A stretch of 64,000 nt of DNA from Escherichia coli (GTDB lineage Bacteria > Pseudomonadota > Gammaproteobacteria > Enterobacterales > Enterobacteriaceae). A program made the translations under genes and the position numbers. Below the pieces are notes generated by a model. The model was not told the origin of the DNA. It ran no database searches and saw only the letters and a program-made list of their open reading frames with translations. This document shows, piece after piece, positions 3,797 to 25,687 of the stretch; within the stretch, counting starts at the first letter, position 1, and every line of letters begins with the position of its first letter. The stretch is from assembly GCF_024700885.2 (NCBI RefSeq), contig NZ_CP117014.1, one strand, 5' to 3'.

Positions 3797-3838
3797 TATT
3801 ATTTTACCGATCGGAACAAAACAGAGTCGGTATGCATT

Positions 3839-4834: not shown

Positions 4835-4847
4835 TGGGAGCAATGCA

Positions 4848-6895: not shown

Positions 6896-6902
6896 GGCCC
6901 GC

Positions 6903-7436: not shown

Positions 7437-8178
7437 TTACCAGGCACTGCGTGAGGCGGCAGAGAAAGCAACGTGGGGAGACTGGGACTCATATAAACCA
7501 CACCGTGGCGCACGTGGTTATAAGGTCCGACTAAGTGGTCAGGCCATTGCGCAACACGTTCTGAAAAACAACGCTGAATTTATTGCTGCCTTTAATCCAA
7601 AGGTTGCTTTGGCATTACTGGATGAACTGGAAAGAAACCAGCAATACATCAAACGCCGCGACCAGAAGAACGAGGATATTGCTCTTACGGTTGGGAAGCT
7701 GAGAGTTGAGCTTGAGGAAGTAAAACAACACGCTGAAGAATTATCCGAAACCAAGGCTGTTCGTAACCAATGGCGGCCAGATATTTGCCCAATAACCGGA
7801 CGTGCATTTTTCATGTGGATTGAGCATCCAACATTGGGAAATGTGCCGACATATGGTGGCCCATTAGATAGTTACACCATTCCAACAAAGGACGGTGACG
7901 GTGAGTTTTCATGTGAGCGTTACGATCATGATTTTGGCGGTTGGGTAGAAAGCGAATGTCTTGGGTTATATCTGATTGATGATAGAGAACAATGCAGGGT
8001 CTACGAACTGGAGGAGCGCGTTAAGGAACTGGATGCTCGGGAAATATCGCTCCCGGAACGTAGCAGCATGCTTCATCGAACAGATTTTCACGATGATTAC
8101 CAAACGGTAATGGCATACAAAGTTTCTGAAGTCATCGATGCAATCCGCGCTACTGGCATTCGCATCAAAGGAGAGTGA
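7423..8178 (+). CDS. Ead/Ea22-like protein
   Basis: GTG start with RBS AAGGAGG; N-terminal paralogy to 5775-6488. Confidence 0.45.
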   Translation: MSKINYQALREAAEKATWGDWDSYKPHRGARGYKVRLSGQAIAQHVLKNNAEFIAAFNPKVALALLDELERNQQYIKRRDQKNEDIALTVGKLRVELEEVKQHAEELSETKAVRNQWRPDICPITGRAFFMWIEHPTLGNVPTYGGPLDSYTIPTKDGDGEFSCERYDHDFGGWVESECLGLYLIDDREQCRVYELEERVKELDAREISLPERSSMLHRTDFHDDYQTVMAYKVSEVIDAIRATGIRIKGE

Positions 8179-8179
8179 G

Positions 8180-8590
8180 ATGAACGCTATAACCAAAGAA
8201 CGTATCAAATTATTCATTAAAAATCCGCTTGATAACGGACTTACTCGTGGCGAACAAATGGAACTGGCACGAATTGCTCTGGCATCGCTGGAAGCAGAGG
8301 CAGTTATGTTCTGTATATCAGGACAAAATGTAGATTCAGAAGAACATGTATCAACCAGCAAAGCGGTTGTTGATGCCTGGGTTGAAGAATGGAATCAGGT
8401 TGACGGAAGTCCTGGCGAACCACTGTACAAAACTATGCCACTCTACTATCACGCTGCCTTGCCAGCGCCGGTAGTGCCGGATGAAATGTATTGGCAGGAT
8501 GCGCCAGTTGAAGGCAGCAGCAAAGCGGCTGCATACGCTACAGGCTGGAACGCCTGCCGCGCCGCTATGCTTCATGGGAAAGGAGAGTGA
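8180..8590 (+). CDS. Hypothetical protein, N-terminal paralog of the 8866-10386 protein
   Basis: First 40 aa (MNAITKERIKLFIKNPLDNGLTRGEQMELARIALASLEA) nearly identical to 8866 ORF; about 90% DNA identity over roughly 120 bp. Confidence 0.45.
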   Translation: MNAITKERIKLFIKNPLDNGLTRGEQMELARIALASLEAEAVMFCISGQNVDSEEHVSTSKAVVDAWVEEWNQVDGSPGEPLYKTMPLYYHAALPAPVVPDEMYWQDAPVEGSSKAAAYATGWNACRAAMLHGKGE

Positions 8591-8591
8591 T

Positions 8592-8855
8592 ATGGCAACT
8601 TTAACAAAAAAAGAACGGGCATGGTTGAACGAATTACAGGACGTTCTTGATCGCTGTCCATCACCGAAAAAAATTGGTTTTTACACCATTGGCGATAAAA
8701 GCATTTACCTGTATGACCTGCGCCGCATGGATGAAATCATGGAGACTCTTGATAATCGTTCGTCGATGGATTGGTGTGTTGCTGTTCATGATATGAATGC
8801 AGGGTTTGATGAAAAGATTTTGTTCCCCTCATCAGTTGAAAGCACTGCGGGTTAA
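8592..8855 (+). CDS. Hypothetical small protein
   Basis: ORF starting MATLTKKERAWLNEL at an ATG directly after the previous stop. Confidence 0.35.
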   Translation: MATLTKKERAWLNELQDVLDRCPSPKKIGFYTIGDKSIYLYDLRRMDEIMETLDNRSSMDWCVAVHDMNAGFDEKILFPSSVESTAG

Positions 8856-8865
8856 GGAGTAACAC

Positions 8866-10386
8866 ATGACCACTATTACCAAAGAACGTATTGAATTGTT
8901 CATTAAAAATCCGCTTGAAAACGGGCTTACCCGTGGTGAACAAATGGAACTGGCACGGATTGCGCTGGCATCGCTGGAAGCAGATCCAGTTAAACGAGTT
9001 AACTCAGATCAGATGCGCCGAGTCTGCTTAGAAGCTAATCGCCATTTAGATAAATATGACGCGATGGCGAAAGAGGTAAATAAGTTGCTTGGACGCATCG
9101 CCCCGCCAGCGCCGGTAGTGCCGGAAGAAGCAACTCCGGAAAACGTAGAAATGCTCTCTGGCTATGTTTCCACGTACAAATTAACCGATAGCGAGCGCGA
9201 TATTGCTGCCGAAATATGGAACGCCTGCCGCACCGCCATGCTTCAGTCCGGAAACTTTCGGGAAAGCAAGAATTCGTCAACCAATAATTTTCGGGAAATC
9301 GCGGAAACGTCAACCAACTATCCGGTAATTCCTAGTGAGGTGTTGTCAGCAATCCTGAAGTTTGCCAGAGTTCGTGCCGATTTCGATGATTTTGACGGTG
9401 ACAGGCGAGGTATCGGTGATTGTCTGGATGAGGCCGAGCAAGAGCTTATCGTTACCATTAACAAATATGCCAGTCAGTTGGCAGCAGAACCGATAGCGAC
9501 TAATGACGTTCGAGAGCAAACAGCCGTTCCGCCAATACAGGCTGATGTCGCGCAAGCAATTGAAAATCTCAAGCAGAAGTTAGTGGAATGCAATCGCTAT
9601 AACTACTGCGCAGATGCAGTTAAAGGCGTAGAGGATGCCAGCCGCGTCTTGGCACTCCAAAATCAAAATATGTCAGCACCGGTAACGCCGGAGGCCATTG
9701 AAAACGCAATTGAATATATCCGCAGTATCGCTTTTCACATCGATGAAGACGATTACCACGGCAAGCATATTGCGTATTTCATGCGACAAGCATTGGCCTG
9801 GCTGGAAGGGCATTCATGCAGCGACGACAGGCTGGGTAAGGCCGACAATCAACCCGCATCTGGTAACCAGTCTGCCGAATCCAATCGCGGTAATGAGTGG
9901 ACCGGCAATCCTGATATTGATAACGCCATCATCATGCTCGACCGCATAGATACGGCGGAAAGTTGCGATGATGACCGTATTGAGGCCGTTAAGGCTGTGT
10001 TGCGTAGACTGGCAGGCAACTATCCGGATATTCCGGATAGTTCGGTGCCAGCGCCAGGAAAGGGCGTCACCGGTGAACGTATCCGCATTAAGCCGCATGT
10101 TTATCGCGAACTGGTTAACCGTCTCCACGATACAGCGATCAAGTGTGCTGGCACCCAGCAATTACGAGAAAGAATTAGCCGTGTTTTGGGCGACGTTATT
10201 ACACCAGATCATCATAAACAAGCCGAGAAAAGTGGCCTGGAAAGGTGTCGCCTTGAGGCGGCATTAAACATTAAGCCGGGGCATACGCTTGGCATTATTG
10301 ATGCACTATTGGTTCATAAGATGGCCAGGGCTTTATTGCCGCTGGTGGCTGAAAAGCATGAGGTGGACCATGCCAACGAAAGCTGA
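8866..10386 (+). CDS. Hypothetical 506-aa modular protein
   Basis: N-terminal module shared with 8180 ORF; C-terminal PHVYRELVNRLHDTAIKCAGTQQLRERI module shared with 1139-1750 protein; RBS AAGGAG. Confidence 0.45.
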   Translation: MTTITKERIELFIKNPLENGLTRGEQMELARIALASLEADPVKRVNSDQMRRVCLEANRHLDKYDAMAKEVNKLLGRIAPPAPVVPEEATPENVEMLSGYVSTYKLTDSERDIAAEIWNACRTAMLQSGNFRESKNSSTNNFREIAETSTNYPVIPSEVLSAILKFARVRADFDDFDGDRRGIGDCLDEAEQELIVTINKYASQLAAEPIATNDVREQTAVPPIQADVAQAIENLKQKLVECNRYNYCADAVKGVEDASRVLALQNQNMSAPVTPEAIENAIEYIRSIAFHIDEDDYHGKHIAYFMRQALAWLEGHSCSDDRLGKADNQPASGNQSAESNRGNEWTGNPDIDNAIIMLDRIDTAESCDDDRIEAVKAVLRRLAGNYPDIPDSSVPAPGKGVTGERIRIKPHVYRELVNRLHDTAIKCAGTQQLRERISRVLGDVITPDHHKQAEKSGLERCRLEAALNIKPGHTLGIIDALLVHKMARALLPLVAEKHEVDHANES

Positions 10387-10654
10387 ATTACAGGTGCGCG
10401 TAGATGAGCTTGAAAAAGAGAACGCGAGCCTCAAAAAAATGCTGTCGCGGGCGGAAAGGGAATTATCAGGCAAATTATTGCCAGAAGAACTGCCACCAGC
10501 AGATATACCTGATCGAGTGTCCTGGTGGATGAAGTATTTCCGTGCACCGTGGGAGGCGTTTTGGTGCTACGACCATCGCAGATGGTGTGATGAGCTTGAT
10601 AGCAGTTTCCCCTATTTTGCAGAAGGGAACTCTTGCCCTGAATGTAGGCGTTAA
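10370..10654 (+). CDS. Small Cys-motif protein (tandem paralog 1)
   Basis: Ends WCYDHRRWCDELDSSFPYFAEGNSCPECRR; paralogous to next ORF. Confidence 0.4.
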   Translation: MPTKAELQVRVDELEKENASLKKMLSRAERELSGKLLPEELPPADIPDRVSWWMKYFRAPWEAFWCYDHRRWCDELDSSFPYFAEGNSCPECRR

Positions 10655-10959
10655 TGATGACCGGCGAGCTTTATTTTAAAATGGCACGGGAGCGGCGTGT
10701 GCATCTGGATCGGATATTTCATCTCCAGAAGAGAGTAGAAGAACTGGAACGTCGTCTGAACTGTTATCCTGTTGATATGGTGTCTGCAATACCGCCGATT
10801 CCAATAGAAATGCAGATCCGCCTATGGATGGAAGAATATGGAATGCCGTGGGAGATATTTTTCTGCTTCGACCATAAACAGTGGGTAGATGAGCTGGATA
10901 ATAGTTTCCCATATTTCACAGAGAACACATGCCCAGTATGCAGGAAGAACGGAATATGA
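10654..10959 (+). CDS. Small Cys-motif protein (tandem paralog 2)
   Basis: Ends FCFDHKQWVDELDNSFPYFTENTCPVCRK. Confidence 0.4.
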   Translation: MMTGELYFKMARERRVHLDRIFHLQKRVEELERRLNCYPVDMVSAIPPIPIEMQIRLWMEEYGMPWEIFFCFDHKQWVDELDNSFPYFTENTCPVCRKNGI

Positions 10960-11480
10960 CAAAATTTGGAAAGCTGGAAGCTCATTTGCTAACTCGCAAC
11001 TACCGCCATGATATACACCCATATAGACAGTGGATCGATGAAAGCGAAGGAGTAGTTACATTCCCTCTCTACAGGTTTGATGGGATGTTGGCTGGGTATC
11101 AGACATATAGACCAGGTGCACCTAAGCAGCATAGCAATCCGAAGATGGCCCGGTATTTCACGCGATCACACGGCAGACAGTTACTTTGGGGAACCTATCT
11201 TCCTTTAAAAGATGGCCCAATATGGATAACTGAGTCTATTTTTAAGAGCGCAGCTGTACACAACGCGGGCGGCAATTCGTGGGCGCTGTTAGGTTCAACT
11301 TTCTCCGCAGGATTACGCCGTCAACTTGCGATGCTGCCGTATGACTTTCGCGTAATAGGTGACAATGATGCGGCTGGTGAATCACTTGTGAAGTCTTTCG
11401 GAAAAGGTTTTGTGGCCCCGGATCTTGACGAGCTACAACCACATGAAGTGTCTCATTTGATTTTTAGCCATAGCCAATAA
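10956..11480 (+). CDS. Stand-alone Toprim-domain protein
   Basis: ESIFKSAAVHNAG ... VIGDNDAAGE resembles the Toprim conserved Glu and DxD motifs; ATGA overlap with the previous stop. Confidence 0.45.
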   Translation: MTKFGKLEAHLLTRNYRHDIHPYRQWIDESEGVVTFPLYRFDGMLAGYQTYRPGAPKQHSNPKMARYFTRSHGRQLLWGTYLPLKDGPIWITESIFKSAAVHNAGGNSWALLGSTFSAGLRRQLAMLPYDFRVIGDNDAAGESLVKSFGKGFVAPDLDELQPHEVSHLIFSHSQ

Positions 11481-11690
11481 GCATCTCTCCCCTTTGAGGT
11501 CACAATTAGTGGCCTTAAACAATGTGTTTTCTACCTCGATTTAGCCTTTATTATCGTTTTGCATTTCTCTAATCCGGGCAACGAGGTTACGCTGATTCGT
11601 TGGTGATGAATAGTAGCAAAGCGCACAAAATCATCTGCGGTGGTTGATGTACGTAACGCGTTTGCACCAAATGTGTCTCTTTAATGTATA

Positions 11691-13004: not shown

Positions 13005-13384
13005 TGAGGCATATATCACCGGAAGAACTTATTGCGCTTCATGATGCGAATATAAGCCGCTACGGCGGCCTGCCGGGAATGTCAGATCCGGGTAGGGCAG
13101 AGGCCATTATCGGGAGAGTTCAGGCCAGAGTTGCCTACGAAGAGATCACCGACCTTTTCGAAGTCTCCGCCACCTACCTGGTGGCTACGGCGAGAGGGCA
13201 TATATTCAATGATGCCAATAAGCGTACCGCGCTAAACAGTGCGCTGCTATTTCTACGCCGTAACGGTATACAGGTATATGATGATCCCGTGCTGGTGGAG
13301 CTTGCAGTGGGGGCTGCAACTGGTGAAATCCCCGTATCTTCAGTAGCGAAAAAACTACGTGAACTATATGGTTCCAATATTTGA
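13004..13384 (+). CDS. doc: Doc toxin (Fic-fold kinase)
   Basis: 126 aa with [10 protein letters not shown] Fic-type motif; near-identical to recalled P1 Doc; ATGA overlap with phd. Confidence 0.85.
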
Positions 13385-13385
13385 A

Positions 13386-13415
13386 AAGAAGCCCGCTCAA
13401 CCAGGCGGGCTTCTT
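13386..13415. terminator. Bidirectional rho-independent terminator between convergent doc and 13420 gene
   Basis: AAGAA-GCCCGC-tcaaccag-GCGGGC-TTCTT hairpin with flanking A/T runs. Confidence 0.55.
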
Positions 13416-13419
13416 ACTA

Positions 13420-14514
13420 TCACTCAATGATTTTTTCTGCTGTCAGCCAGCTAATTTCTTGCCTGTCTTTCGGCGGTTTTAGCATGTGGGCGTATTCAGC
13501 GACATTCTCCCACGGAATTGTTTTTGCCCACTCAACGATAGCATTGTGATCTGCAGTGAAGAGTGGAATGGTGTGCGATTTCAACCATTCTAATGTCGTG
13601 ACGCCATGTTTTTTGGCGTGGTGCTGCGCATGATGCCGGGCTATCACTCGTAATGGTATTGTCCATTCACTACCATCAGGCATCGAAAAGCGCATTGTCT
13701 TCGGCATATCTGATTCAAGAACAGCCTCCCTAATACCAGGGAACTCACCAAGAATCATACGACGATAGTCATCACTATTTCGCCCGCCATACCTTTCGGC
13801 AAAATGATCAAGATATTCTTGGGTAATAAATGGTGAATCCTCCGCACTCAGCTTAATGGCTTTATATACACCACTCGGATTATCTTCAGCTAAAGCACGT
13901 CCATGATGTGAATCATAAAAAAAGCCTATTTCCTCTGGTGACGGAATTGAAGTGAGCAATATGCGTGAATCACCACTAGTCATGCTTGCCCACACAATGC
14001 TGTATGCCCGATCGCTGATATGTGCGGAATCCACAATAATGAATAAAAGATGGTCGGCGTAGTGACCTGCAATGCTATCTTCATAGTTAAGGCGGAAGTT
14101 ACAAAAGCACATTCCCCAAAATTCATTGAACATCAGACCGCTATCACCGACCTTAAAATACTCAATGATAAAAGGTTGTTTTTTCAGCAATGCCTCCCAA
14201 CATTGCCACACATATGCAACAATTCCTCTTTTGCAAACATTTGATTTTGGATAAACAATTACTGTCCGGGAATCAGGATACATAATCGTATAAAGGGTAC
14301 TAATAACAGCAAGCACTTGCGGTCGTCCGATCCCATACGGAGTGGTGACAGTAGCTTTTGCATTATTGGGCTGTATAGCTTCAACAATTTGTTGTTGCTG
14401 GTGGCTTAAATCAATATCAAACAATTCTTTTGCTGCCAGTACCCAATTGTCTTTATATTTCTCCACCAGCGACAGCCAGCGCGGATCTTTATAAATATTG
14501 CTCTTAGTCGCCAT
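13420..14514 (-). CDS. Terminase large-subunit (PacB) paralog with degenerate Walker A/B motifs
   Basis: Aligns with PacB (19603-21111): DPRW, SHQQQQI, FYDSHH, SPF, EYGGR shared; Walker A GHGTGKS replaced by PYGIGRP, Walker B ILDEAS by IVDSAH; divergent shorter C-terminus. Start set at MATKSNIYKD (ATG 14514). Confidence 0.6.
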   Translation of the reverse strand: MATKSNIYKDPRWLSLVEKYKDNWVLAAKELFDIDLSHQQQQIVEAIQPNNAKATVTTPYGIGRPQVLAVISTLYTIMYPDSRTVIVYPKSNVCKRGIVAYVWQCWEALLKKQPFIIEYFKVGDSGLMFNEFWGMCFCNFRLNYEDSIAGHYADHLLFIIVDSAHISDRAYSIVWASMTSGDSRILLTSIPSPEEIGFFYDSHHGRALAEDNPSGVYKAIKLSAEDSPFITQEYLDHFAERYGGRNSDDYRRMILGEFPGIREAVLESDMPKTMRFSMPDGSEWTIPLRVIARHHAQHHAKKHGVTTLEWLKSHTIPLFTADHNAIVEWAKTIPWENVAEYAHMLKPPKDRQEISWLTAEKIIE

Positions 14515-15271
14515 CTGCCACTTCCTTAACTTCTTCTTTGGCCTGTTCTGCAATCGCCGCACGGCATTTCGCCCTGGCTGTAGCGATTGCTTCAGCTCGC
14601 ACATCGTCTGGAATCGTTGACGTGATATACATATCCAGTTCTTCGGCACGGAATACTGTTTGGTCCAGATATTCGCGTAGCATCCAGGTAAATTCGAAAT
14701 CACACGCGATAATCTCTGCGCTACCTTCTGCACCATTTGGGAAATGAATAAATGCCTGTTTAGCCAAACCGATAACACGACATGCGGTTGCCAAAACAGC
14801 GACAACTAGGTTTACATTTTCACACGCTACGGGCTGGTTAACGCCGGAGATTACTCCATTTAACTGTCGGTTATATGGAAGGTAGTTTGAGATGCGTTCT
14901 ACGCGCCATGTGCCAGTCAGGCTGCCATTTTTAAATATAATTGGTGTAACGGATAGCCCAAGCTCGCGTATAAGTCGTTGCGCTATAGCAGGATCATTAA
15001 ACAGGTCTAATGCTACACATTCGAAAGACTGCGCAAGGGCAAACAGTTCTTCCAGAGAGTAGTCTTTGCCCCTGGCGGTGATGTAACGACGAACGCCGCT
15101 GTCTGCATCACTCCATATAGCTACGCCATGCTCTTCATTCAGCTCTTCATTAAAGCCGAGATACGTCATGATAGTGCGTTCAATCGTGTCAAACGGCAGT
15201 GACATGTCGGCGTTAACAGCCACCAGCAGGCCATTACGCAAGCGGTATTGAATTGTTTTAGTGCTTTCCAT
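14504..15271 (-). CDS. Hypothetical 255-aa protein
   Basis: ORF tightly coupled within the six-gene minus-strand operon. Confidence 0.4.
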   Translation of the reverse strand: MESTKTIQYRLRNGLLVAVNADMSLPFDTIERTIMTYLGFNEELNEEHGVAIWSDADSGVRRYITARGKDYSLEELFALAQSFECVALDLFNDPAIAQRLIRELGLSVTPIIFKNGSLTGTWRVERISNYLPYNRQLNGVISGVNQPVACENVNLVVAVLATACRVIGLAKQAFIHFPNGAEGSAEIIACDFEFTWMLREYLDQTVFRAEELDMYITSTIPDDVRAEAIATARAKCRAAIAEQAKEEVKEVADGD

Positions 15272-15277
15272 GTCAAA

Positions 15278-15718
15278 TCACTCCACAACAAACCAGTCAC
15301 AGGCCAGCAGGTCGCCAACTGAAGGCACCCACGGAACAACTACACCTTGTGCATTTTTTAAGGCGAAATAAGCACCATACGGAACGAGGTCGCCGGGGAA
15401 ATATCCCTTAATGGCTTCCATTCGTGCCGGGTACTGTCCTTCAGGAACCAGCCAGCAGAATTGGTTTTCGCCGTTCCACCCGCGTCGAGCAACTTTCTTG
15501 CCTTCCTTCAGCCACATCAGCGCGTCTGAAAAGTCGGCTGCTTCAAGGTCGATTTCTTCTTGCTGGGTGGTGATGCCACCAGCAGAAATAGTTACGCTCC
15601 CGGTAAGATTAATCATCACGCCGTTGTCATCCGTAATGATGACCGTGGTTCCATTTTTTTTGTGAGCTTTGTATTTGGGACGGAACTTAAAAAGCTCTTT
15701 CGTTGCCATGTTATTCAT
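15278..15718 (-). CDS. DUF2829-like protein (Tad2-like candidate) with N-terminal extension
   Basis: C-terminal half FSDALMWLKEGKKVARRGWNG...VPWVPSVGDLLACDWFVVE fits my recollection of the DUF2829 signature. Confidence 0.45.
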   Translation of the reverse strand: MNNMATKELFKFRPKYKAHKKNGTTVIITDDNGVMINLTGSVTISAGGITTQQEEIDLEAADFSDALMWLKEGKKVARRGWNGENQFCWLVPEGQYPARMEAIKGYFPGDLVPYGAYFALKNAQGVVVPWVPSVGDLLACDWFVVE

Positions 15719-15732
15719 AGTCTTTTCTCTGC

Positions 15733-16227
15733 TTATAACTTTTCGTACTGAAGCGGTGAACGCTTAATTTCAAAGTGGCCTTCCGATGTGCTACCAAAGC
15801 CACCAGCACCACGCTCCGTTTCGTTGAGTTCCTCAACCTCGACTAGTGAGACTTGTTCAACACGCTCAAAAATTCCTTGCATGACAGCCATTCCAGGCTT
15901 GAGACAAACGCCTTCCCCGCCGGGATCAGTAATCAGTTTTGCCATGATTTCGCCGCGATAATCGGAGTCGATAATTCCTACGCAGTTAGCCAGGCGAGTA
16001 TGTTTTTTGCAGCCCAATCCTGATCGCGGATAGAGTTTCAGACACCAGCCGGGCGGGATCTCCATAGCCAGTCCGGTATACACCCACCAGCTTGAGGAAA
16101 TTGCACCATTGCTATCGACGCATGGTTTTATTTCAACAGCCTCAAAATCCATCGCCGCCGATCCGGAGGTGGCATAAGCTGGAAGTTTTGCTGCCGGATG
16201 TAGGCGTTTCACTTTTACGTAAATCAT
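15733..16227 (-). CDS. dut: dUTPase (trimeric dUTP diphosphatase)
   Basis: Motifs SAAMDF, PRSG, GIIDSDYRGEI and RGAGGFGSTS. Confidence 0.75.
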   Translation of the reverse strand: MIYVKVKRLHPAAKLPAYATSGSAAMDFEAVEIKPCVDSNGAISSSWWVYTGLAMEIPPGWCLKLYPRSGLGCKKHTRLANCVGIIDSDYRGEIMAKLITDPGGEGVCLKPGMAVMQGIFERVEQVSLVEVEELNETERGAGGFGSTSEGHFEIKRSPLQYEKL

Positions 16228-16706
16228 TGTTTTTTAGCTCTCTGCGTGAAGGTGTAAACCCGACGTTTGATATGTGGAACGGTAGGAACAGGAAGACAGG
16301 AACTTTCAATAACTCCTTGCTCATCCAGCGATCGCACCGCCCGCAAGAACTGCGACGTGTCGCCGCCAAACTGGCGGGCATAGGTGCTGCCGTTATGAAG
16401 TATTTGAGCTATTACCCGAGTTTTTGTCTGGCTGTCACGATATGCGAATAGCCGCACGGCCTCTTCTGGCGCAATCGCTAACTGATAGCCTTTCCCGGCA
16501 CGGTGTCGAATGAATCCATGCGCCAGTAGGTTTTTGAGTTCGTTACGAGTGCGAACAGATCCGTAACCCAGGAAGTGTGGATTGATAACGACTGGCTTAA
16601 ACCATTCCGTAGGTGCTTTAGCTAATAGAGCTAACAGCTTCCCGGATAATTCTGGATAGGAAGACGGGTAACAATTCAGAGATGGGTAATAAGTTTTCAC
16701 CGACAC
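16224..16706 (-). CDS. Hypothetical 160-aa protein
   Basis: ORF with 4-bp overlap to the downstream gene. Confidence 0.35.
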   Translation of the reverse strand: MSVKTYYPSLNCYPSSYPELSGKLLALLAKAPTEWFKPVVINPHFLGYGSVRTRNELKNLLAHGFIRHRAGKGYQLAIAPEEAVRLFAYRDSQTKTRVIAQILHNGSTYARQFGGDTSQFLRAVRSLDEQGVIESSCLPVPTVPHIKRRVYTFTQRAKKQ

Positions 16707-17041
16707 CCCCTTGCAGGATATCGACCGGCATTAGTATCCGGTGCAATAAAGCCGGTAGTGGGGCGAGTGAAAGCGAGATTAATCTTCTCGACCATAGTGC
16801 GATAATTTTCCTGATAGTGGGCCAGGAGTTTTTCGGCGGCAATGATGGTTACTTTCCGGACGTAGCTTTCTGCTTCCTCCAGATTTCGCCAGTTTTTTTC
16901 GAGGGTAAACACAGGGACGGCCTCAAGCCCGGTCATGATGCCGAACACAACGACAGCATGACTGTTCTTAACACCAGCGGCGAAGGTTACGGTGTAACCA
17001 TCCACCTTGAAGCGTCTTGATTCCGTGATTTGACTCTGCAA
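16697..17041 (-). CDS. Hypothetical 114-aa protein, first gene of the operon (P1 c8 position)
   Basis: ORF preceded on its upstream side by the TGTTAGAA operator-like motif at 17099-17106. Confidence 0.35.
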   Translation of the reverse strand: MQSQITESRRFKVDGYTVTFAAGVKNSHAVVVFGIMTGLEAVPVFTLEKNWRNLEEAESYVRKVTIIAAEKLLAHYQENYRTMVEKINLAFTRPTTGFIAPDTNAGRYPARGCR

Positions 17042-17098
17042 AGCACCCTCCTAAATAGGCGAGGGTACTTTACAGCAAAGGCGTTAATCTAAAAAGAT

Positions 17099-17106
17099 GT
17101 GTTAGA
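17099..17106 (-). promoter_or_regulatory. Operator-like motif (TGTTAGAA) upstream of the 17041-13420 operon
   Basis: Same motif family as 937-944 and others. Confidence 0.4.
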
Positions 17107-17114
17107 AATTTAAT

Positions 17115-18143
17115 TTACGAATCCATCAGGCGGCTATTAGCCCCCACAGACACGCCGCCACGGCGAAGATACCGCATAAGTGTTTCCGGTTTCTTCCAGG
17201 TTCCTTCCTGCATGATCTCCACCATAGACACCTGCTTTTCAGCCATATCAATAGCGGCCCCGACGCGTGCACTATGCCCGGTCCACGTCCGGTATCTTCC
17301 TTTGTTTGGCGTAGCATCTCTTTTATTCAGCAACACCCAGGCGTCGCTGAATATTTTCTCCATTGCAGGTGCAGTAAGGGGCGTTGTCGTGATCCTGGCC
17401 TTATTGCTACGGTGTATCGGCGGGAACAGCACTGCGTCAGGATGTTCGCGAAGCCCGGAAACATCCAGCCAGTCATTCAGCACAGCGGTAGTGCGACGGG
17501 AAAGCACCTTATCAAGCCCGGCGGCGGTCGTTATTGTCTTCGTGTGTGAAATATGTAGCGTGACAGTGTCACCTGTTTGATCCAGATCTCCTACACGAAT
17601 ACGCGAGATTTCCGACATACGCATCAGCGTATTGTATGCAACAAAGAGAAAAGCCCGGTTGCGCAGGTCCACCAGCCGTTCTGACCTGGACAACAGGACG
17701 TCGAGCAGTTTCAGATCGTCCCACCGAAGCGGTATAGCCTGGCCTGTTCGTTCGCCTTTTTCAGTTGCCGCTTCGCGCCGGATGCGCCGCATAGCCAGAG
17801 AAACACTTTTATCATCCGAAAGTGGCGGAAGGCCACAATGCGAAAGCAGCATATTCAGCATGGCGTAGTGCTTATCAATGGTGGTCGAAGCCAGATCGGC
17901 ATCATGCAGCTGAAGAAAATACTCGCGGGCCATTTCTGGTGAGATCGGAAACCAGGCAAGCTGGCGAGCGTGACACCAGCGCGCCCATGAATGAAACACC
18001 AACCGGAGGTCGCGCAGAGTATTCGGCGCATAAGCCCCCTGGTCATTCATGAACCGCATAAAGTTTTCTGCAGCCTCCTGGTACTCTTTGCCAATGTTGC
18101 GCAGAAAACCACCGGAGCTGCCAGAGATAATTAATTCACTCAT
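17115..18143 (-). CDS. dre: Cre-family tyrosine recombinase (Dre-like)
   Basis: 342 aa; AVSLAMRRIRRE, AYNTLMRMSEISRIRVGDL, WTGHSARVGAAIDMA parallel recalled Cre (AVSLVMRRIRKE, AYNTLLRIAEIARIRVKDI, WSGHSARVGAARDMA) at roughly 40% identity; adjacent rox-type site. Confidence 0.85.
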   Translation of the reverse strand: MSELIISGSSGGFLRNIGKEYQEAAENFMRFMNDQGAYAPNTLRDLRLVFHSWARWCHARQLAWFPISPEMAREYFLQLHDADLASTTIDKHYAMLNMLLSHCGLPPLSDDKSVSLAMRRIRREAATEKGERTGQAIPLRWDDLKLLDVLLSRSERLVDLRNRAFLFVAYNTLMRMSEISRIRVGDLDQTGDTVTLHISHTKTITTAAGLDKVLSRRTTAVLNDWLDVSGLREHPDAVLFPPIHRSNKARITTTPLTAPAMEKIFSDAWVLLNKRDATPNKGRYRTWTGHSARVGAAIDMAEKQVSMVEIMQEGTWKKPETLMRYLRRGGVSVGANSRLMDS

Positions 18144-18295
18144 GAAACTATTTAACCTCTATATACAGATAACGCTACGCGAAAAATATAAAAATGACAG
18201 GGTAGCTATAAGTTAATTTTCAAGATTCAAGCCTTTGATTCGAGGCGCGTATTTTCAGTGATGTCAATACTGATCATCTACCCATAATTATAGCC

Positions 18296-18327
18296 TAACT
18301 TTAAATAATGCCAATTATTTAAAGTTA
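18296..18327. other. rox-type recombination site (14-bp inverted arms, 4-bp spacer GCCA)
   Basis: TAACTTTAAATAAT-GCCA-ATTATTTAAAGTTA, perfect arms; arm begins ATAACTT-like as in loxP; 150 bp upstream of the recombinase start. Confidence 0.8.
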
Positions 18328-18426
18328 TAAAATGCCGATTTTTTTTAATCCATCATAGATTGATGATGACCAGTAACACGTTGCCTTCATGGTCTTTAAT
18401 TTGCGAAGTGTGGTTTCTACGGTTGG

Positions 18427-18521
18427 TTTTCTAAAATTGATGACAAAAAATCACAGTTCGATCCTTTACTCACTCTGTTATTCGACATAAATTTGTCATA
18501 GTAATTTTATGTTAGAAAACT
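18427..18521 (+). promoter_or_regulatory. Two operator-like motifs upstream of the 18538 gene
   Basis: TTTTCTAAAATTGATGAC at 18427-18444 and TGTTAGAAAACT at 18510-18521. Confidence 0.4.
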
Positions 18522-18537
18522 AAATCGAGTAGGAATA

Positions 18538-19575
18538 ATGAGTAAGAAGTCGATCGAGAAAGAGTACAAACGGTTCCTGCAAACCGCTGAACGGTGGAAA
18601 GAGCTGGTGGTCGCAAACTCTGTTTTCCATGATACCAGTTATGCTGGCGAGGAATTCCGCCATGTTGCATTAACGCATGACCAAAACATATTAGAAGAAG
18701 CTGAAAAATGTCTTGCTGAATGGAAAGCCTTCGTTGACATGTGCCGCGATGCCGACGGCAAAGCGTCGAACATTGTTGAGTCTGTATATTCTCCGATCCC
18801 ATTCATCATTGAGGACACCAATCAAAGCACGCATGTCGTTGTGCAAAGCGCTACAACAACACGTACATTTACACGTGAACAATTGCTAAAAAAATACGAC
18901 AAAATCATAAAGAAAAGCCTTAAAAATAGGGTTTTTTCTCAAATCGTAGGTGATCTTGAAGAAGAACAGCGCTTCTTTGAAGCTGAGCCTGAAGGCGAGA
19001 TCTACCGGGCGCGTAAAGAGGCATATACAGATGTTGTGCTGACAACAAACATCGAAGGCAGCAATGCCCTTTCTCGCTTTAGAGTTGGCGCACATGGTGC
19101 ATTGGTTTTCGCAAGACTACCGAAGACAACGATCCCCGTTGTCAATAATGTTGGTGAACGCCGGAGCATTACAATTTATTCTGGCGTCGAATCGGTACCT
19201 TGCAGCCTTCTCGGCGATTTTAACTTATATCGTGTTCGTGACCTGGAAAAACACCAGCCAAGCTATGTTGCGAAGTCGTACATCTTAAGGAACATCGATA
19301 TTCGCAATGAAAGCCTTAAGCAGAAATCCGCTAAGATGCTGGAGGATGCCGATCCGGCTATTCGCCATATCATTGAGCGTAAGATACGTACATCACGTGA
19401 AGCAATGGCAAGGCTGGATAAAATGGATCTGGAATTGTTAGACGTAATGATGGCCTCTGGAGACGACCTGACCGGCATTAAACTGAATGAAGCTCGTAAA
19501 AAATACGGCAAAGCAATCGAAGAACGTTACGGATACACATTCCCCCAAACGCAGTACGCCGCGAAGCTCTGGTAA
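18538..19575 (+). CDS. Hypothetical 345-aa protein, candidate immunity repressor (C1 position)
   Basis: Lies between pacB and the rox/recombinase, transcribed opposite to pac as c1 is in P1; two operator-like motifs upstream. No sequence match to C1 verified. Confidence 0.35.
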   Translation: MSKKSIEKEYKRFLQTAERWKELVVANSVFHDTSYAGEEFRHVALTHDQNILEEAEKCLAEWKAFVDMCRDADGKASNIVESVYSPIPFIIEDTNQSTHVVVQSATTTRTFTREQLLKKYDKIIKKSLKNRVFSQIVGDLEEEQRFFEAEPEGEIYRARKEAYTDVVLTTNIEGSNALSRFRVGAHGALVFARLPKTTIPVVNNVGERRSITIYSGVESVPCSLLGDFNLYRVRDLEKHQPSYVAKSYILRNIDIRNESLKQKSAKMLEDADPAIRHIIERKIRTSREAMARLDKMDLELLDVMMASGDDLTGIKLNEARKKYGKAIEERYGYTFPQTQYAAKLW

Positions 19576-19584
19576 TCACAACCG

Positions 19585-19604
19585 GCCCCGCATCGCGGGG
19601 CTTT
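19585..19604. terminator. Bidirectional terminator between convergent 18538 gene and pacB
   Basis: GCCCCGC-atc-GCGGGGC followed by TTT. Confidence 0.5.
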
Positions 19605-21111
19605 ATATATCCAGATCCGGCATTTCGATATCCGCCAGAACCTGATCTCGGAAAGTTGCCATTTCGGCACCAATATCTTCATTAGCAGGCACATAGTCCA
19701 CCAGCATAGTGAAGCAGTAGGTATCCCATCGGTCAGGCGATTTGATGTTTAGCTTTTGCCGCATGTGCTCTTTGCGCATCATCGCCATTTTCCCTTCTTC
19801 ATTCAGTAAAAAGGGGATTTTTGACGCTTGCTCTGCCGTTTTAGGGTCACTGTCTATCCGCATACGCCCTGACTTTATGGCATCACGCGCCATAATGTTT
19901 GCGTAGGCACGCTGATTAACAAATCGCTCCCTGTCTTTGTTCGCAAACATGGGTTTTCCCCACCGAATACGTACCGGGTTCGCACCACGACGCACCAACT
20001 GCGCACACGTATCAGAACCAAAACCATCAGCATCAACCGCGATTGTTATATTCGGGTATTTTTCCGGCGTACATTCGTTATATATGAAGTCAGCAAAGGC
20101 CAATGGGTCCATAGTGCCAGGCATCTCCATTACCTTAAAGTTAACAACGCGCCGCTTATCCCTGTGACCTGATACCTTGCAGATGTTGAGGACCGACTTA
20201 TCTCGCCCATTACCAACGTCAGCCGTTGCCACCCATCCCCAGTTTTTCTCCAACAACACCTTGCGGCGAGCAGAGCGATCGCATTCATCACGACCAAGCA
20301 AATAGCCGTTAATTTCTCGTGGGAACTGACCAAGCACCTTGACCATGTACTCAATAGAATCGCGCCCACCATATTCCAGAAGCTTCTCCTTGATGAATTG
20401 TGGTGTGACGAACGGTGATTCTTCCGAGTTAAGAACAATTGCTGTCCAGATCCCTTTCGGGTTGTCTGGGGTTTTTGCTCGAGAATGGTGCGAATCGTAG
20501 AAATAACCACTTGGCCTTGTTGGCTGGGATAGCATCAACATCCGGTTATCTTCTTCAGTAAGAGCACCGGTCATTACGCCGATCGCCTTATCAGATATAC
20601 CAGATGCTTCATCCAGAATTAGAAGCAAATGTGCCGCGTGTTCCCCCGCCAGCGCTTCTTCGTTGCCGAGTCGATAACCTTTGCAGAGAACTTCCCAAAT
20701 CCCCTTACGGGAGCGCTCATAAAACATGGTGTCAGAGAGGACAAAATAGGTCTGCAACCACCCATGACGCTTAACTGCATTCGCCCAATACTGTTTAACG
20801 TATTTGAATACGCCTGTTTTTACCTGGCCTATCTTGTTAGCAACAATGATGACACGGGCATCGGGGAACAGGATCATAAAAATCAACAGCAACATCGCGG
20901 TAAGGGACGACTTCCCCGTTCCGTGTCCGGACGTGACGGTCGTCCTACTCCCCGTTTCCTGCACTGACTGAATGATCTGCTGCTGCTGGTGGGAGGGGAA
21001 CATCCCAAAAATATCGACTACAGCCTGGGTAAAGTTGTAGCGGTATTTGATTACCATATCGCGCCAGCGTGGATCGCTGGTGACGCATTTAATCTTGCGC
21101 CCGCCAGCCAT
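19603..21111 (-). CDS. pacB: Terminase large subunit (PacB-like)
   Basis: 502 aa; Walker A SGHGTGKSS, Walker B LLLILDEAS; downstream of pacA with overlapping stop/start. Confidence 0.75.
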   Translation of the reverse strand: MAGGRKIKCVTSDPRWRDMVIKYRYNFTQAVVDIFGMFPSHQQQQIIQSVQETGSRTTVTSGHGTGKSSLTAMLLLIFMILFPDARVIIVANKIGQVKTGVFKYVKQYWANAVKRHGWLQTYFVLSDTMFYERSRKGIWEVLCKGYRLGNEEALAGEHAAHLLLILDEASGISDKAIGVMTGALTEEDNRMLMLSQPTRPSGYFYDSHHSRAKTPDNPKGIWTAIVLNSEESPFVTPQFIKEKLLEYGGRDSIEYMVKVLGQFPREINGYLLGRDECDRSARRKVLLEKNWGWVATADVGNGRDKSVLNICKVSGHRDKRRVVNFKVMEMPGTMDPLAFADFIYNECTPEKYPNITIAVDADGFGSDTCAQLVRRGANPVRIRWGKPMFANKDRERFVNQRAYANIMARDAIKSGRMRIDSDPKTAEQASKIPFLLNEEGKMAMMRKEHMRQKLNIKSPDRWDTYCFTMLVDYVPANEDIGAEMATFRDQVLADIEMPDLDI

Positions 21112-22475
21112 TAATCATCCTCCGGCGGTTCTATCGCGATATCATCATCTCCGGCGTCATACCCTGCATCAGATGCATCATAATCACCGTAAATTTCAGC
21201 CGTTGCCGAAGGGTCAATATCCAGCTCTTCGTCGTTGGCCTCGAATTCTCCAGCTTTACGCTCGCCATTGCGGTCGTAATCTCCGCACCCCAATTCTTCA
21301 ACAATGGTTGCCACATCCGCCCGGCGCTCTGCCAGCCATTGCGGATGGTTAGCCTGAAGCGTTGCAAACTCCCTTGCCTCTTTGTCCAGCTGTTCATCAT
21401 CAACATCATTGACGTCAGAAACAGGTGGTTCGAGAAGAGTGATAGCTTTCGCCGCGCGCGCCGCGAGGATAGCCGGGACGCTGACACCCTGGCGCTCGAT
21501 GTATTCAGCAACACCGATATCATCCAGTTCCTCGCGCTCACGCATACGTATAGCGGCGGCGATAACTCTGGCTGCGCGTGCGTCAGCGCCAATGCGATAT
21601 TCAATCTCTTTGCCACGCTGTTCGGCCTGTAGGCGTGCTAATTCGAGTTTTTCTCTGGCCTCAGCCTCTTTGAATGCTTGCTGGCGAGCGCTCTGACGAA
21701 GCTTTTCATCCCCCTGTCGCAGCTTTTGTTCGGACTGATATATAGCTGCCAACCTACTGATAAAATCATTCATGTAGTAGGCCGCGTCACTGATTAGACC
21801 GAGAAGGCGCTGCCCAGGGTGCATTCCTTCTGGCTCTTTATCGCCCAAGGCGTCTATTTCCGCCTGTAGACGTTCGGCCTCCTGATCAACAATGCTTTGA
21901 TACTGAAGTGCGCGCTCTTGCGCCATTTGAATTGCTAACCGCAGGTGTTCTTCTGCGCCGTTCTTCATCATATCGCGAGCCACATTCGTAGTTGGCAATG
22001 TGGCACGCTGCACAGCACCGTCAGGGATCATTGCAGAAGATCCCTCAATTTTTGGGGCGTTTTTATCTTCTTCGGGGATCATTTTCGCCATTTTTTCGCG
22101 CAATGATCTCCTGACAGATTCTTTTATCTCATTGTTATTATTTGAATTATTTTCATGATCCGAAGTTTTCTTTCTCGGCATACTTCGGAAAGAACCTGCG
22201 CCCTGCGAATTGTCAATTTCTGTAAATTTTGTTTTTTCTGCACCCTCTTCCAGCTTTTTTGTTGCTCTTCCCGCCCGTTTTTTTTCAGGTGATTTGGTGC
22301 TTTTTTTTGTTGTCTTTACCTGCGACCGCACCTCATTTTTTTTCATATTGAGATGCTTTCTGGCTGTATTGAAGCTAAGGCCATGCTCCTCACAGTATTC
22401 CTTTACAGTGATCCCTTTTTCTTCACGCAACGCTATAAAGCGGGCGCGGTGCTCCTCCCAATTAACCAGACTCAT
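21111..22475 (-). CDS. pacA: Terminase small subunit (PacA-like)
   Basis: 454 aa, N-terminal HTH-like and Lys/Glu-rich region; position immediately upstream of pacB; GATC cluster inside. Confidence 0.6.
   Translation of the reverse strand: MSLVNWEEHRARFIALREEKGITVKEYCEEHGLSFNTARKHLNMKKNEVRSQVKTTKKSTKSPEKKRAGRATKKLEEGAEKTKFTEIDNSQGAGSFRSMPRKKTSDHENNSNNNNEIKESVRRSLREKMAKMIPEEDKNAPKIEGSSAMIPDGAVQRATLPTTNVARDMMKNGAEEHLRLAIQMAQERALQYQSIVDQEAERLQAEIDALGDKEPEGMHPGQRLLGLISDAAYYMNDFISRLAAIYQSEQKLRQGDEKLRQSARQQAFKEAEAREKLELARLQAEQRGKEIEYRIGADARAARVIAAAIRMREREELDDIGVAEYIERQGVSVPAILAARAAKAITLLEPPVSDVNDVDDEQLDKEAREFATLQANHPQWLAERRADVATIVEELGCGDYDRNGERKAGEFEANDEELDIDPSATAEIYGDYDASDAGYDAGDDDIAIEPPEDD
22026..22160. 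other. Candidate pac site (cluster of Dam GATC hexamers inside pacA)
   Basis: Five GATC sites within 135 bp (22026, 22039, 22077, 22105, 22157), far above chance; P1 pac is a cluster of TGATC(A/G) elements inside pacA. Confidence 0.35.
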
Positions 22476-22864
22476 AAAGCAACACCACGCTTTTTAACGG
22501 CGGCATTCCACAGCTTATTCGCCATGTCCACCAGCTCTCGTTGCTCTTTTCGCGCCTGTTCGACTGATTTCCTGCTACAGTTTTTAACCAGTAAACTGCC
22601 ATATTCAGGGGTTCGCCCACGCACCTTGAACTGATATCCGTTCAGGCCATGCAACCAGTATTTTCGTGGGTAAACACGATCATCAAGCTCACAGATTGCC
22701 CTGCTTGAACGAACAAAATGACGAATGATGTTAGTTACACTTACTCGTGAAACATGGAGATGAGGGTATTTTTCTTTGGCGAGAGTGGTAATTTCAGTGA
22801 CTGTCAGATAGCAGTCAGCCCTGATCATGATATCCGCAATTTCTGCGCTGCTGATTTGTTCCAT
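22472..22864 (-). CDS. Hypothetical 130-aa protein, positional analog of late-promoter activator Lpa
   Basis: Immediately upstream of pacA as lpa is in P1; operator-like motif TATTAGAA at 22941-22955 upstream. Confidence 0.3.
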   Translation of the reverse strand: MEQISSAEIADIMIRADCYLTVTEITTLAKEKYPHLHVSRVSVTNIIRHFVRSSRAICELDDRVYPRKYWLHGLNGYQFKVRGRTPEYGSLLVKNCSRKSVEQARKEQRELVDMANKLWNAAVKKRGVAL

Positions 22865-22972
22865 TAATCCCCCGGGCAGGAAATGACCGAGGGGATGATA
22901 ATGAGAATGTTAAAACTGTATAGACTGGTAAAAAGATGAATGTATTAGAAAATTAATACTAAATATCTAATG

Positions 22973-23365
22973 CTACCAGCTAGACAAACGAACAACATGT
23001 TTCACTTTTGCGATCCACTGTCCGCGATAACTATTGATTACGGCCTGTGCCAGCTTCAAATTGGCTTCAAAATCAGCCTTACTACCATCAGACTCCACCA
23101 GCATTCCTCCATCTATTTCTGGTAAACATAGATAATCCTGCTCAACCTGCAGCGGCATTGATGGCTCTCTGAATGGGGTTACTTGCTCTGCTTTCCAGCG
23201 AAATCTAACCCTTATCCCCCTGGTGGTCATTACTAGATAGCCTGTTATAGTGCTTTTATGGCCCACATCAGTACGCGTGGCATTGCATGACTCGATCTTA
23301 CAGTTAGCGATAGACCACTCCATATTGGTGGCCTGTTGAGTGCTTAATTTGGTAGTCCCGTACAT
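22973..23365 (-). CDS. Hypothetical 130-aa protein
   Basis: ORF coupled with the upstream 191-aa gene. Confidence 0.3.
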   Translation of the reverse strand: MYGTTKLSTQQATNMEWSIANCKIESCNATRTDVGHKSTITGYLVMTTRGIRVRFRWKAEQVTPFREPSMPLQVEQDYLCLPEIDGGMLVESDGSKADFEANLKLAQAVINSYRGQWIAKVKHVVRLSSW

Positions 23366-23940
23366 CAGAAAGCCTCCCAGTCAGTCGCGATAATATCCAC
23401 ACCAGTTGCAAACCAGTCTGTCTGCGCCTGTAAATCCCCATTCATCATTACCAGGCGAGGCATCACCATCACATCGCACCCTTCCACAATATCGAATGCC
23501 TCTTCCGGCAAGAATTCGAAGAGCTTTTCTTTGCTGCCAATACTGCCACGGAACATCGATATATAGCTCCCTTTGGGCCATGATGTCCGCCGGGCATCAA
23601 GCCCTTTCATCATCCAGTAAAAAGCCGAGGAAAAAGGGATATTCTTTTTGCCAATGATTACATTATTCGCTTCTGTGTATTTCAGGAACTTAACTAACCT
23701 TACCATTGACTCGGATAACGCAACGTATGGCTCATGATTGATTGCTGACACGCTTACACCGTGCAATCCAACGCTTACCACTGTCATATCGCCGCTCTGT
23801 GCGGTTTCGATATTGACGCCTTTGCGAACTAATGAGGCGTAAATTTCCTCTCGCTTTTGGGTCCAGCGTTCACGCTTCCCTATGAAGTCACTCAAAATGA
23901 GATCTTCTTCTGTATATGCGTTATCGTTCGCCATTAACAT
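23365..23940 (-). CDS. Hypothetical 191-aa protein with a possible DUF2829-like C-terminal region
   Basis: FYWMMKGLDARRTSWPKGSYISMF ... TDWFATGVDIIATDWEAF loosely parallels the 15278 ORF pattern. Confidence 0.3.
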   Translation of the reverse strand: MLMANDNAYTEEDLILSDFIGKRERWTQKREEIYASLVRKGVNIETAQSGDMTVVSVGLHGVSVSAINHEPYVALSESMVRLVKFLKYTEANNVIIGKKNIPFSSAFYWMMKGLDARRTSWPKGSYISMFRGSIGSKEKLFEFLPEEAFDIVEGCDVMVMPRLVMMNGDLQAQTDWFATGVDIIATDWEAF

Positions 23941-24392
23941 AACGTTTCCTTTTTTACACGCGCGACTATCCCCCGGAAGTACCGGTAGTGATGTCGTAAC
24001 TTCGTATTAATTAAGGGGTACAGCCTGAGCGGCTATATGATGAATTGAAAGGAGTTGTGGCGGTGGTGCCTCCACCTGCCAGGTTAGCCACTCCTGGCGA
24101 CGTCACTTATCAGAACGTAGTGAATGAAAATGGCTTCGTCACGAGCGCATAGCCGCAATTACCACAACGGAAACGGCGCTCACGCTAATTAAACGCCTTT
24201 TCCTGTTGTGCGCCGTGCTCTTCCGGCTGTCACACCGAATCGCCAGGATGGTGAATCCGCAGTCCGACGCTATGAACGGGGCTTGCACATTCCGGCTACC
24301 TGGTGTGCCCATGCAGTGTTAGTAAAAGGTACCTAACAGCTACACCAGACCGCTAACGACGCATGTGCCATACGCCGTGTTACAACCAAATG

Positions 24393-24468
24393 TGGTGGCC
24401 CCTACCGGACTTGAACCGGTGACCGTGCGATTATGAGTCGCCCGCTCTAACCACTGAGCTAAAGGGCC
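24393..24468 (-). tRNA. tRNA with CAT anticodon, most like tRNA-Ile2 (lysidine, reads AUA)
   Basis: GGCCCTTTAGCTCAGTGGTTAGAGCGGGCGACTCATAATCGCACGGTCACCGGTTCAAGTCCGGTAGGGGCCACCA; cloverleaf folds; closely resembles E. coli ileX as recalled. Confidence 0.75.
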
Positions 24469-24897
24469 AGATTACTGTTAATTACGCTTACGCTTTTTGC
24501 CAGAACCGCGTAAGGCTTTTGCCGCTTGCTCTACCCCGTATGCAACCACCAGCAGAAACAATAATGTCCACTCCGGGTTTTTATCGGCAAACGCCCAAAA
24601 ATCCATCACTTGCAGCCACCTTTTAAGACAAAACGCCATTGCTGTTAGGTTGCGGTGCCGGGCGCCTCCCGGTGACGTTAACCAGTTAACAATTAACGCC
24701 GGATCACTTATGGATTCTCGTTACGCCAGTAAAAAGACCACCTTTACTGTTTTAACTGTTCCGCGTGCGCTTAGCCGCATTCACCGCAATGGTAAGAGCA
24801 TTTGGCTGACTGGGCGGCGATGACGCCTGTACGCATTTGGTGATCCGGTTCTGCTTCCGGCATTCGCTTAATTAGCCAAATACCCTTAATGTTGCAC

Positions 24898-24984
24898 TGG
24901 CGGAGAGTAATGGAATCGAACCATCATCGCTTGCGCAATGGGACGGTTTTCAAGACCGCTTGAGCACCATGCTCCCTACTCTCC
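24898..24984 (-). tRNA. tRNA-Ser (anticodon TGA) with long variable arm
   Basis: GGAGAGT...GGTCTTGAAAACC...GGTTCGATTCC...CTCTCCGCCA; 87 nt. Confidence 0.7.
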
Positions 24985-25438
24985 CGTTATTGTGGCGACC
25001 GGTGCTGATCTCCGGCTTGCGGTTATTTCAGACTCTCACGGGCGTTTAATTGCCCCGCCGAACAGCTCTTTTCCGCAATAGCTGCAATGTCTTTCGCGCA
25101 TCAGCCTGCGCATTCACCACAATGTTGAGAACACTGGTTGTCACGCTGCAACGCAACATTTATTCGTAGATTGGGATATGACCCCGTTACGCCAGTGTTC
25201 TCAACGTTGTAGTGCCGGTTACGGTTCCGGCCAGACCTCTTCCTCAACGGGGTGTTCTCCATACGGACTACCGTTTATTGGTCGTTCCTGCGGTTTATGT
25301 TGTGAAGCCAGATGCTTATCTTCTGGTTGCTTCAAAGAGCTGCACTTCATCACAACGGTAAGAGCATTTATGGCTCGCATCGCGGGAAAAAGCCCACGGT
25401 AGAGAGTCGAACTCTACAAATGCTCTTACCTGTTGTGT

Positions 25439-25514
25439 TGGTGCCGGTTAACGGGATCGAACCGCTGACCATTCGCTTACAAAGCGACTGCTCTACCAAC
25501 TGAGCTAAACCGGC
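25439..25514 (-). tRNA. tRNA-Thr (anticodon TGT)
   Basis: GCCGGTTTAGCTCAGTTGGTAGAGCAGTCGCTTTGTAAGCGA...GGTTCGATCCC...AACCGGCACCA. Confidence 0.7.
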
Positions 25515-25518
25515 AATT

Positions 25519-25605
25519 TGGTGGGGAGTGATGGAGTCGAACCACCCGAGTCGCAATGACAGTAGATTTACAGTCTACCCCGCTACCCCTACGGACTAAC
25601 TCCCC
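25519..25605 (-). tRNA. tRNA-Tyr (anticodon GTA) with long variable arm
   Basis: GGGGAGTTAGTCC...AGACTGTAAATCT...GGTTCGACTCC...CTCCCCACCA. Confidence 0.7.
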
Positions 25606-25610
25606 TAAAT

Positions 25611-25687
25611 TGGCGATGGTGGGTGGATTCGAACCACCTACCGAAAGCTTAGAAGGCTGCTGTTCTATCCTACTGAGCTACACCATC
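25611..25687 (-). tRNA. tRNA-Arg (anticodon TCT, reads AGA)
   Basis: GATGGTGTAGCTCAGTAGGATAGAACAGCAGCCTTCTAAGCTTT...GGTTCGAATCC...CACCATCGCCA; anticodon loop CTTCTAA like argU; stem slightly degenerate. Confidence 0.6.

Follow-up and report, generated by a model that had tools for sequence, protein, structure and literature searches.

A Dre/rox site-specific recombination module in a D6-like phage-plasmid

The window—the whole stretch of 64,000 nt analyzed here, with positions counted from its first letter—contains a tyrosine recombinase gene, a short palindromic site just upstream of it and, on the other side of that site, a divergently oriented prophage repressor gene followed by terminase genes. 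The features considered in this study, including several candidate sites, are located as follows.

17115-18143, minus strand: dre, encoding the Cre-family tyrosine recombinase Dre of 342 amino acids (ATG open reading frame, starting at 18143)
18287-18314, minus strand: hypothetical sigma-70 promoter-like site directed toward dre, with an 11/12 match to the consensus
18296-18327, plus strand: rox, the 32-bp Dre target, with arms at 18296-18309 and 18314-18327 and an asymmetric spacer, GCCA, at 18310-18313
18295-18328, plus strand: rox read in a loxP-style 13+8+13 register, xTAACTTTAAATA / ATGCCAAT / TATTTAAAGTTAx
18423-18437 (minus strand) and 18509-18523 (plus strand): two inverted copies of the 15-nt sequence ATGTTAGAAAACTAA between rox and c1, candidate D6-type C1 operators
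18538-19575, plus strand: c1, the D6-type prophage repressor gene (open reading frame, D6 annotation and phrog_1678 at E = 4.9e-170)
19603-21111, minus strand: pacB, terminase gene (open reading frame and D6 annotation)
21111-22475, minus strand: pacA, terminase gene (open reading frame and D6 annotation)
22026-22160, within pacA: candidate Dam-controlled pac site, where GATC sites are clustered most densely in the window, 3.7-3.85 kb from rox

The locus as originally delimited (17115-18327) runs exactly from the dre stop codon to the last base of rox. The site sits in the dre-c1 intergenic region, just upstream of dre and adjoining the pacB/pacA side of the map, with gaps of 152 nt to the dre ATG and 210 nt to the ATG of c1.

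The recombinase is Dre. A BLASTP comparison with the protein of phage D6 (AAV84949.1, in AY753669) returned 342/342 identical amino acids, and tblastn with the window recombinase gave 100% identity to both AY753669 and MF356679; identity to P1 Cre amounts to 41.3%, over residues 23-341. Two Pfam domains were recognized—the SAM-like N-terminal domain Phage_int_SAM_1 (PF02899) at residues 26-97 and the catalytic domain Phage_integrase (PF00589) at residues 157-327—together with all of the catalytic residues R175, K202, H290, R293, W316 and Y325, among which R175, H290, R293, W316 and Y325 are those given for Dre in PMC4777119. This R-K-H-R-W-Y set within a two-domain layout is that of a Cre-like (simple) tyrosine recombinase. 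The best matches in a search of the PDB were all Cre chains (E = 5e-69, aligned over the whole length), with no Dre structure among the matches, and NCBIfam yielded just sub-threshold XerC/XerD-type matches, no dedicated Cre/Dre model having fired. The initial annotation, which had described the recombinase as clearly Cre-family yet divergent and as Dre-type, is borne out on both points, by the Cre structures heading the PDB search and by the distance of the protein from Cre set against its identity to Dre. At the nucleotide level, dre differs from the D6 gene at 31 positions, 29 of them third and 2 first codon positions, and every one of these changes is synonymous; such a ratio of 31 synonymous to 0 non-synonymous changes points to strong purifying selection.

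The target site reads TAACTTTAAATAAT GCCA ATTATTTAAAGTTA, with 14-nt arms that are 100% complementary. Published wild-type rox, 5'-TAACTTTAAATAATGCCAATTATTTAAAGTTA-3' (PMC4777119; likewise printed in PMC3082901), matches positions 18296-18327 as an exact string, the misc_recomb feature 'rox' of the D6 record AY753669 is identical to the window site, and both of the native flanking bases quoted as (A)...(G) in PMC3082901 are matched as well. Among perfect palindromes with spacers of up to 10 nt, rox is the longest in the 64 kb, the runners-up having arms of 11 nt, and arms of at least 14 nt appeared in none of 20 composition-preserving block shuffles. A rox pattern with the spacer left free finds one match at up to three mismatches in the window, against 0.00 expected. 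The palindrome is thus no chance feature, being the longest in the window, absent from the shuffles and the only match to the pattern. Further rox half-sites at up to two mismatches were found nowhere in the 64-kb window; the locus carries a minimal palindromic site—a single 14+4+14 unit with an asymmetric centre and without accessory arm sites. The perfect 14+4+14 palindrome first reported for this locus was exact in its coordinates and in the complementarity of its arms, and the arms agree base for base with the sequence of PMC4777119. One remark in the initial annotation, namely that the arms begin ATAACTT like those of loxP and differ in the middle, has to be amended: the central difference stands, but the 14-nt arm itself begins TAACTT, and a loxP-like ATAACTT is formed on the c1 side alone (through the complement of T18328), the flank on the dre side being C18295.

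When rox is set in the 13+8+13 register, only three central bases (CGT in loxP, TAA in rox) separate its arm, xTAACTTTAAATA, from that of loxP, ATAACTTCGTATA, and the same three-base central difference between rox and loxP arms was described in PMC4957104. Mutagenesis of rox indicated that the initial base(s) of the inverted repeats are part of the crossover region, and that mutations in the first arm bases beside the 4-bp spacer control compatibility (PMC4777119). The register of 13+8+13, with ATGCCAAT as the crossover region, is probably the functional one behind the formal 14+4+14 description.

To place the module in its genomic setting, we compared the window with phage D6. The D6 genome (91,159 bp) is numbered in its record from the centre of rox as base 1, and the window crosses that point: positions 14531-18311 correspond to D6 87379-91159, and positions 18312-24608 to D6 1-6281. 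Matches to D6, at 92-98% identity and in the same order, cover about 78% of the window and are broken by replaced segments. Both share an identical Dre, an identical rox with its flanks, an equal distance from rox to the dre ATG and the gene order dut-orf3-orf2-dre-rox-c1-pacB-pacA; they differ in the ~22% of the window that has no D6 counterpart, in the 31 synonymous changes in dre and in the nucleotide sequence of the dre/rox locus, which is 96.8% identical. The dre-c1 intergenic region shows 12 differences from D6, with 0 inside rox. Plasmids of 87-97 kb from E. coli, Salmonella and Shigella come closest to the window, without any identical record among them, and what marks a D6-like phage-plasmid—collinearity with D6 and a plasmid of ~90 kb—was found here. 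Judged by its sequence, the window belongs to the D6 lineage of P1-like phage-plasmids as a mosaic relative and is not D6 itself, and the original assignment to that lineage rather than to P1 agrees with the collinearity across the rox junction and with the absence of loxP, for which no match at up to three mismatches was obtained in the 64-kb window. The segments without a D6 counterpart (2173-2803, 5138-9537, 10649-11658, 13375-14530, 43079-45801 and 51699-55153) are mosaic replacements that include the tail-fibre region, and an open reading frame of 1013 amino acids (44106-47147, minus strand) extends into one of them.

Of 5,426 complete E. coli genomes, 123 (~2.3%) carry the same locus, with 122 of its 125 placements on plasmids and 3 on the chromosome, and it also occurs in 143 plasmids of PLSDB. 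Dre/rox was noted earlier in E. coli strains (PMC4957104), and D6-like plasmid prophages have been described in Salmonella (PMC6799933).

Taken together, these results make it almost certain that a D6-like phage-plasmid of E. coli carries here its natural module for Dre/rox site-specific recombination, and the identification of Dre/rox is firm because it rests on sequence identity; no observation contradicted it. The feature itself is already known and was correctly identified from the start; Dre/rox of Escherichia phage D6 was reportedly described by Sauer and McDermott in 2004. Two other accounts of its identity have only a negligible probability in our judgment. In favor of a Cre/loxP module like that of P1, or of a divergent Cre paired with a variant lox site, one could cite the near full-length alignment with Cre and the motif TAACTT...ATA that the arms share with loxP, but neither the Cre protein nor the loxP site of P1 is present: identity is 41.3% to Cre against 100% to Dre, the site is rox, loxP is missing at up to three mismatches, and cross-reaction of Dre with loxP or of Cre with rox was absent in published work (PMC3082901). 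The wide use of Dre/rox in genetic engineering, together with a protein identical to laboratory Dre, might instead suggest an engineered cassette or vector contamination of the assembly. Here, however, a lone rox stands in its native position and flanks within 64 kb of D6-like collinear DNA, with neither flanking vector sequence nor a directly repeated rox pair; laboratory constructs derive from the D6 gene, and dre here departs from it at 31 synonymous positions; the locus, moreover, recurs in the 143 PLSDB plasmids and the 123 complete E. coli genomes.

It is also very unlikely that Dre acts mainly as an integrase into a chromosomal site, with rox as attP, instead of serving resolution or cyclization. 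The 3 chromosomal placements among 125 and the label 'integrase' in the PHROG and NCBI annotations could be read in that sense; these labels, however, are generic family names, and the other 122 placements are on plasmids of ~90 kb. Moreover, the site is a simple symmetric core of the Cre type, with neither arm-type sites nor an excisionase nearby, and both D6 and P1 are kept as plasmids.

For the natural Dre/rox module, a broader view of the recombinase and its site was obtained through a protein search, which yielded 36 viral-contig loci; four plasmid loci and one Pantoea locus were added. The sites accompanying these homologues are listed below with the amino acid identity to Dre (L numbers are our locus labels).

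21 of 33 viral loci, at least 70% identity: rox exact
9 of 33 viral loci, at least 70% identity: a single T-to-C change (T24C) in the c1-proximal arm, ATTATCTAAAGTTA
L023, 99% identity: spacer CCCC
L033, 89% identity: TAACTTTAAATAAC TCCA ATTATCTAAAGTTA, with changes in spacer and arms
L041 (90% identity) and L042 (94% identity), plasmids: rox exact
L037 and L043, 70% identity: arms unchanged, spacer GCTA
L039 and L040, 56% identity: a 14+6+14 site, ATAACTTTATATAA TGTCAG TTATATAAAGTTAT
L047, Pantoea agglomerans plasmid: imperfect pox-like site

The 14+6+14 site of the relatives with 56% identity is intermediate between rox and loxP. Since the arms are the same in relatives with as little as 70% protein identity, whereas the spacers vary, these sequences indicate that the rox arms are far more conserved than the protein and that it is the centre that varies. 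The distance between site and start codon is likewise stable: all Dre-like relatives of at least 70% identity have the site 152-154 nt upstream of the recombinase ATG, and in L039 and L040 its nearest edge is ~150 nt upstream, with a greater distance at the Pantoea locus.

The two inverted copies of ATGTTAGAAAACTAA between rox and c1 belong to a dispersed set. Eight copies with up to two mismatches occur in the window, against 0.18 expected; these 15-nt sites start at 277, 3783, 18423, 18509, 26907, 28156, 39101 and 40304, and a weaker copy occupies 17099-17113. The consensus of the P1 C1 operator found no match in the window at up to three mismatches. The dispersed ATGTTAGAAAACTAA copies are probably D6-type C1 operators, which, if so, would imply an immunity distinct from that of P1. 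Elsewhere in the window, Rfam recognized a C4 antisense RNA (68.8 bits) and an a1/b1 target element (55.2 bits) at 38803-39008 on the minus strand; the pair represents an immI region for antirepressor control of the P1 type, and the C4 antisense RNA locus has one copy of ATGTTAGAAAACTAA just upstream of it. In addition, ARAGORN and Rfam located five tRNA genes at 24393-25687 on the minus strand (Met, Ser-UGA, Thr, Tyr and Arg). The homologous region of the D6 record lists three only (Ser, Thr and Asn), on the plus strand, a mismatch that may reflect either a difference in content or a problem of strand or identity in the D6 annotation.

A further aspect of the locus concerns the promoter-like site that overlaps rox. 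Its -35 element, TTGGCA (18314-18309), spans the rox spacer, its -10 element, TATAAT (18292-18287), lies 3 nt outside rox, and the 16-nt spacer between them consists of the dre-proximal rox arm plus GGC. This is the only match of at least 11/12 to the sigma-70 consensus on either strand of the 64 kb, and about one would be expected anywhere by chance; it is the position and orientation of the match, not its mere occurrence, that stand out. All Dre-like lineages, from 100% down to 70% amino acid identity, keep the TATAAT although both flanks diverge; it is missing beside the site in the relatives with 56% identity and at the Pantoea locus. For P1, the annotation places no cre promoter inside lox, nor was a promoter-like match directed toward cre found across lox. 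We tentatively suggest—as a possibility that we hold to be less probable than its opposite—that rox may double as the dre promoter, with rox-bound Dre shutting off its own transcription. Such autorepression would be plausible because Dre bound at rox would cover both the -35 element and the promoter spacer. A literature search on promoter activity of rox or autoregulation of Dre, with a scope that stopped short of the original Dre and D6 genome papers, gave nothing relevant. If the suggestion is correct, the recombinase would be kept low in the lysogen and dre expression would be tied to site occupancy; the rox spacer would be constrained by promoter function in addition to strand exchange, and the natural spacers GCTA, CCCC and TCCA would alter heterospecificity and expression alike.

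The 152-nt dre leader (18144-18295, minus strand) contains blocks that are kept even in the relative with 56% identity and at the Pantoea locus, e.g., TTTTTCGCGTAGCG and TATAGAG. About 25 nt downstream of TATAAT lies TATTGACA, which is kept in lineages of at least 89% amino acid identity and has no convincing -10 partner; the conserved TTGACA at this place was rejected as a promoter, no acceptable -10 element being present at a distance of 16-18 nt. Similarly, TAACTTATAGCTA at ~18204-18216 was considered as a Dre half-site within the leader and dismissed, as it is not conserved in a lineage of ~90% amino acid identity and fails the arm search at two mismatches.

With regard to function, efficient rox × rox recombination was demonstrated in E. 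coli and in mammalian cells, and Dre recombines rox and not loxP, VloxP or SloxP (PMC3082901). By identity with this published pair, the Dre and rox of the window are predicted to recombine rox with rox and to be inactive on loxP. By the same identity with the characterized system, each rox arm is bound by one Dre monomer and two rox sites synapse in a tetramer, within which Tyr325 cleaves and rejoins first one pair of strands and then the other, by way of a Holliday junction; the direction of rox is set by its asymmetric centre, and accessory sites or host factors are not needed. Two natural roles are the most likely for this reaction. Dimers of the low-copy plasmid prophage would be resolved, allowing faithful partition, and injected, terminally redundant linear DNA would be cyclized whenever rox falls within the redundancy. 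The site may indeed lie inside the terminal redundancy, because it is only ~3.7-3.9 kb from the probable pac.

The evidence for such a pac site comes from the terminase genes. Within pacA, the GATC cluster at 22026-22160 packs 5 sites into 150 nt, where the mean is 0.56, and may represent a Dam-controlled pac; an array of TGATCA/G hexamers of the P1 pac type is absent from pacA, where the hexamers are unclustered and a plain GATC cluster is found instead. The position of pacA and pacB directly beyond c1 gives a layout consistent with the presumed roles. By analogy with Cre/lox of P1, it is a reasonable inference that dre/rox would serve as a locus for dimer resolution and circularization. A literature search, with the original Dre and D6 genome papers outside its scope, turned up no experiment that addressed dimer resolution or cyclization directly in D6 or its relatives; a D6-like plasmid prophage of Salmonella is stated to use this recombinase and site for multimer resolution, a role assigned by homology (PMC6799933).

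As a tool orthogonal to Cre/loxP, Dre/rox is standard in genome engineering, and D6 and its relatives have already been described; finding the module in a D6-like phage-plasmid adds nothing fundamental. What the module does provide is a firm mark of the window as a P1-like phage-plasmid of the D6 lineage, and it fixes the conventional origin of the map. The openings that it offers are two only: the hypothesis of a promoter within rox, which is testable, and the natural variants of rox, catalogued alongside Dre homologues with 56-100% identity, which may be of interest for the design of heterospecific sites. Like both of these, the prevalence figure of ~2.3% among complete E. coli genomes is a by-product of modest value.

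Compared with Cre/loxP of P1, the module shows the same family, fold and catalytic residues, a site built of simple inverted arms around an asymmetric centre and located between c1/pac and the recombinase gene, and a matching layout of pac-pacB-c1-site-recombinase. The distance of ~4 kb to the putative pac resembles that in P1, where pac is 4.0 kb from lox, and the same roles in cyclization and dimer resolution are presumed for both systems. The two differ, however, in protein sequence (41% identity) and in formal site architecture, which is 13+8+13 in loxP and 14+4+14 in rox. In P1, moreover, lox is separated from cre by cra and from c1 by coi/imcAB, whereas the dre-rox (152 nt) and rox-c1 (210 nt) gaps of the window are short and contain none of these genes. 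Cre/loxP and Dre/rox are, in addition, heterospecific, without cross-recombination (PMC3082901). Among the relatives, the Pantoea agglomerans plasmid has its pox-like site without a TATAAT after it. Panto of Pantoea sp. aB is reported to be 52% identical to Dre, and its pox arms are one base off those of rox; Dre and Panto each recombine both rox and pox sites, and rox does not recombine with pox because the spacers of the two sites differ (PMC4957104).
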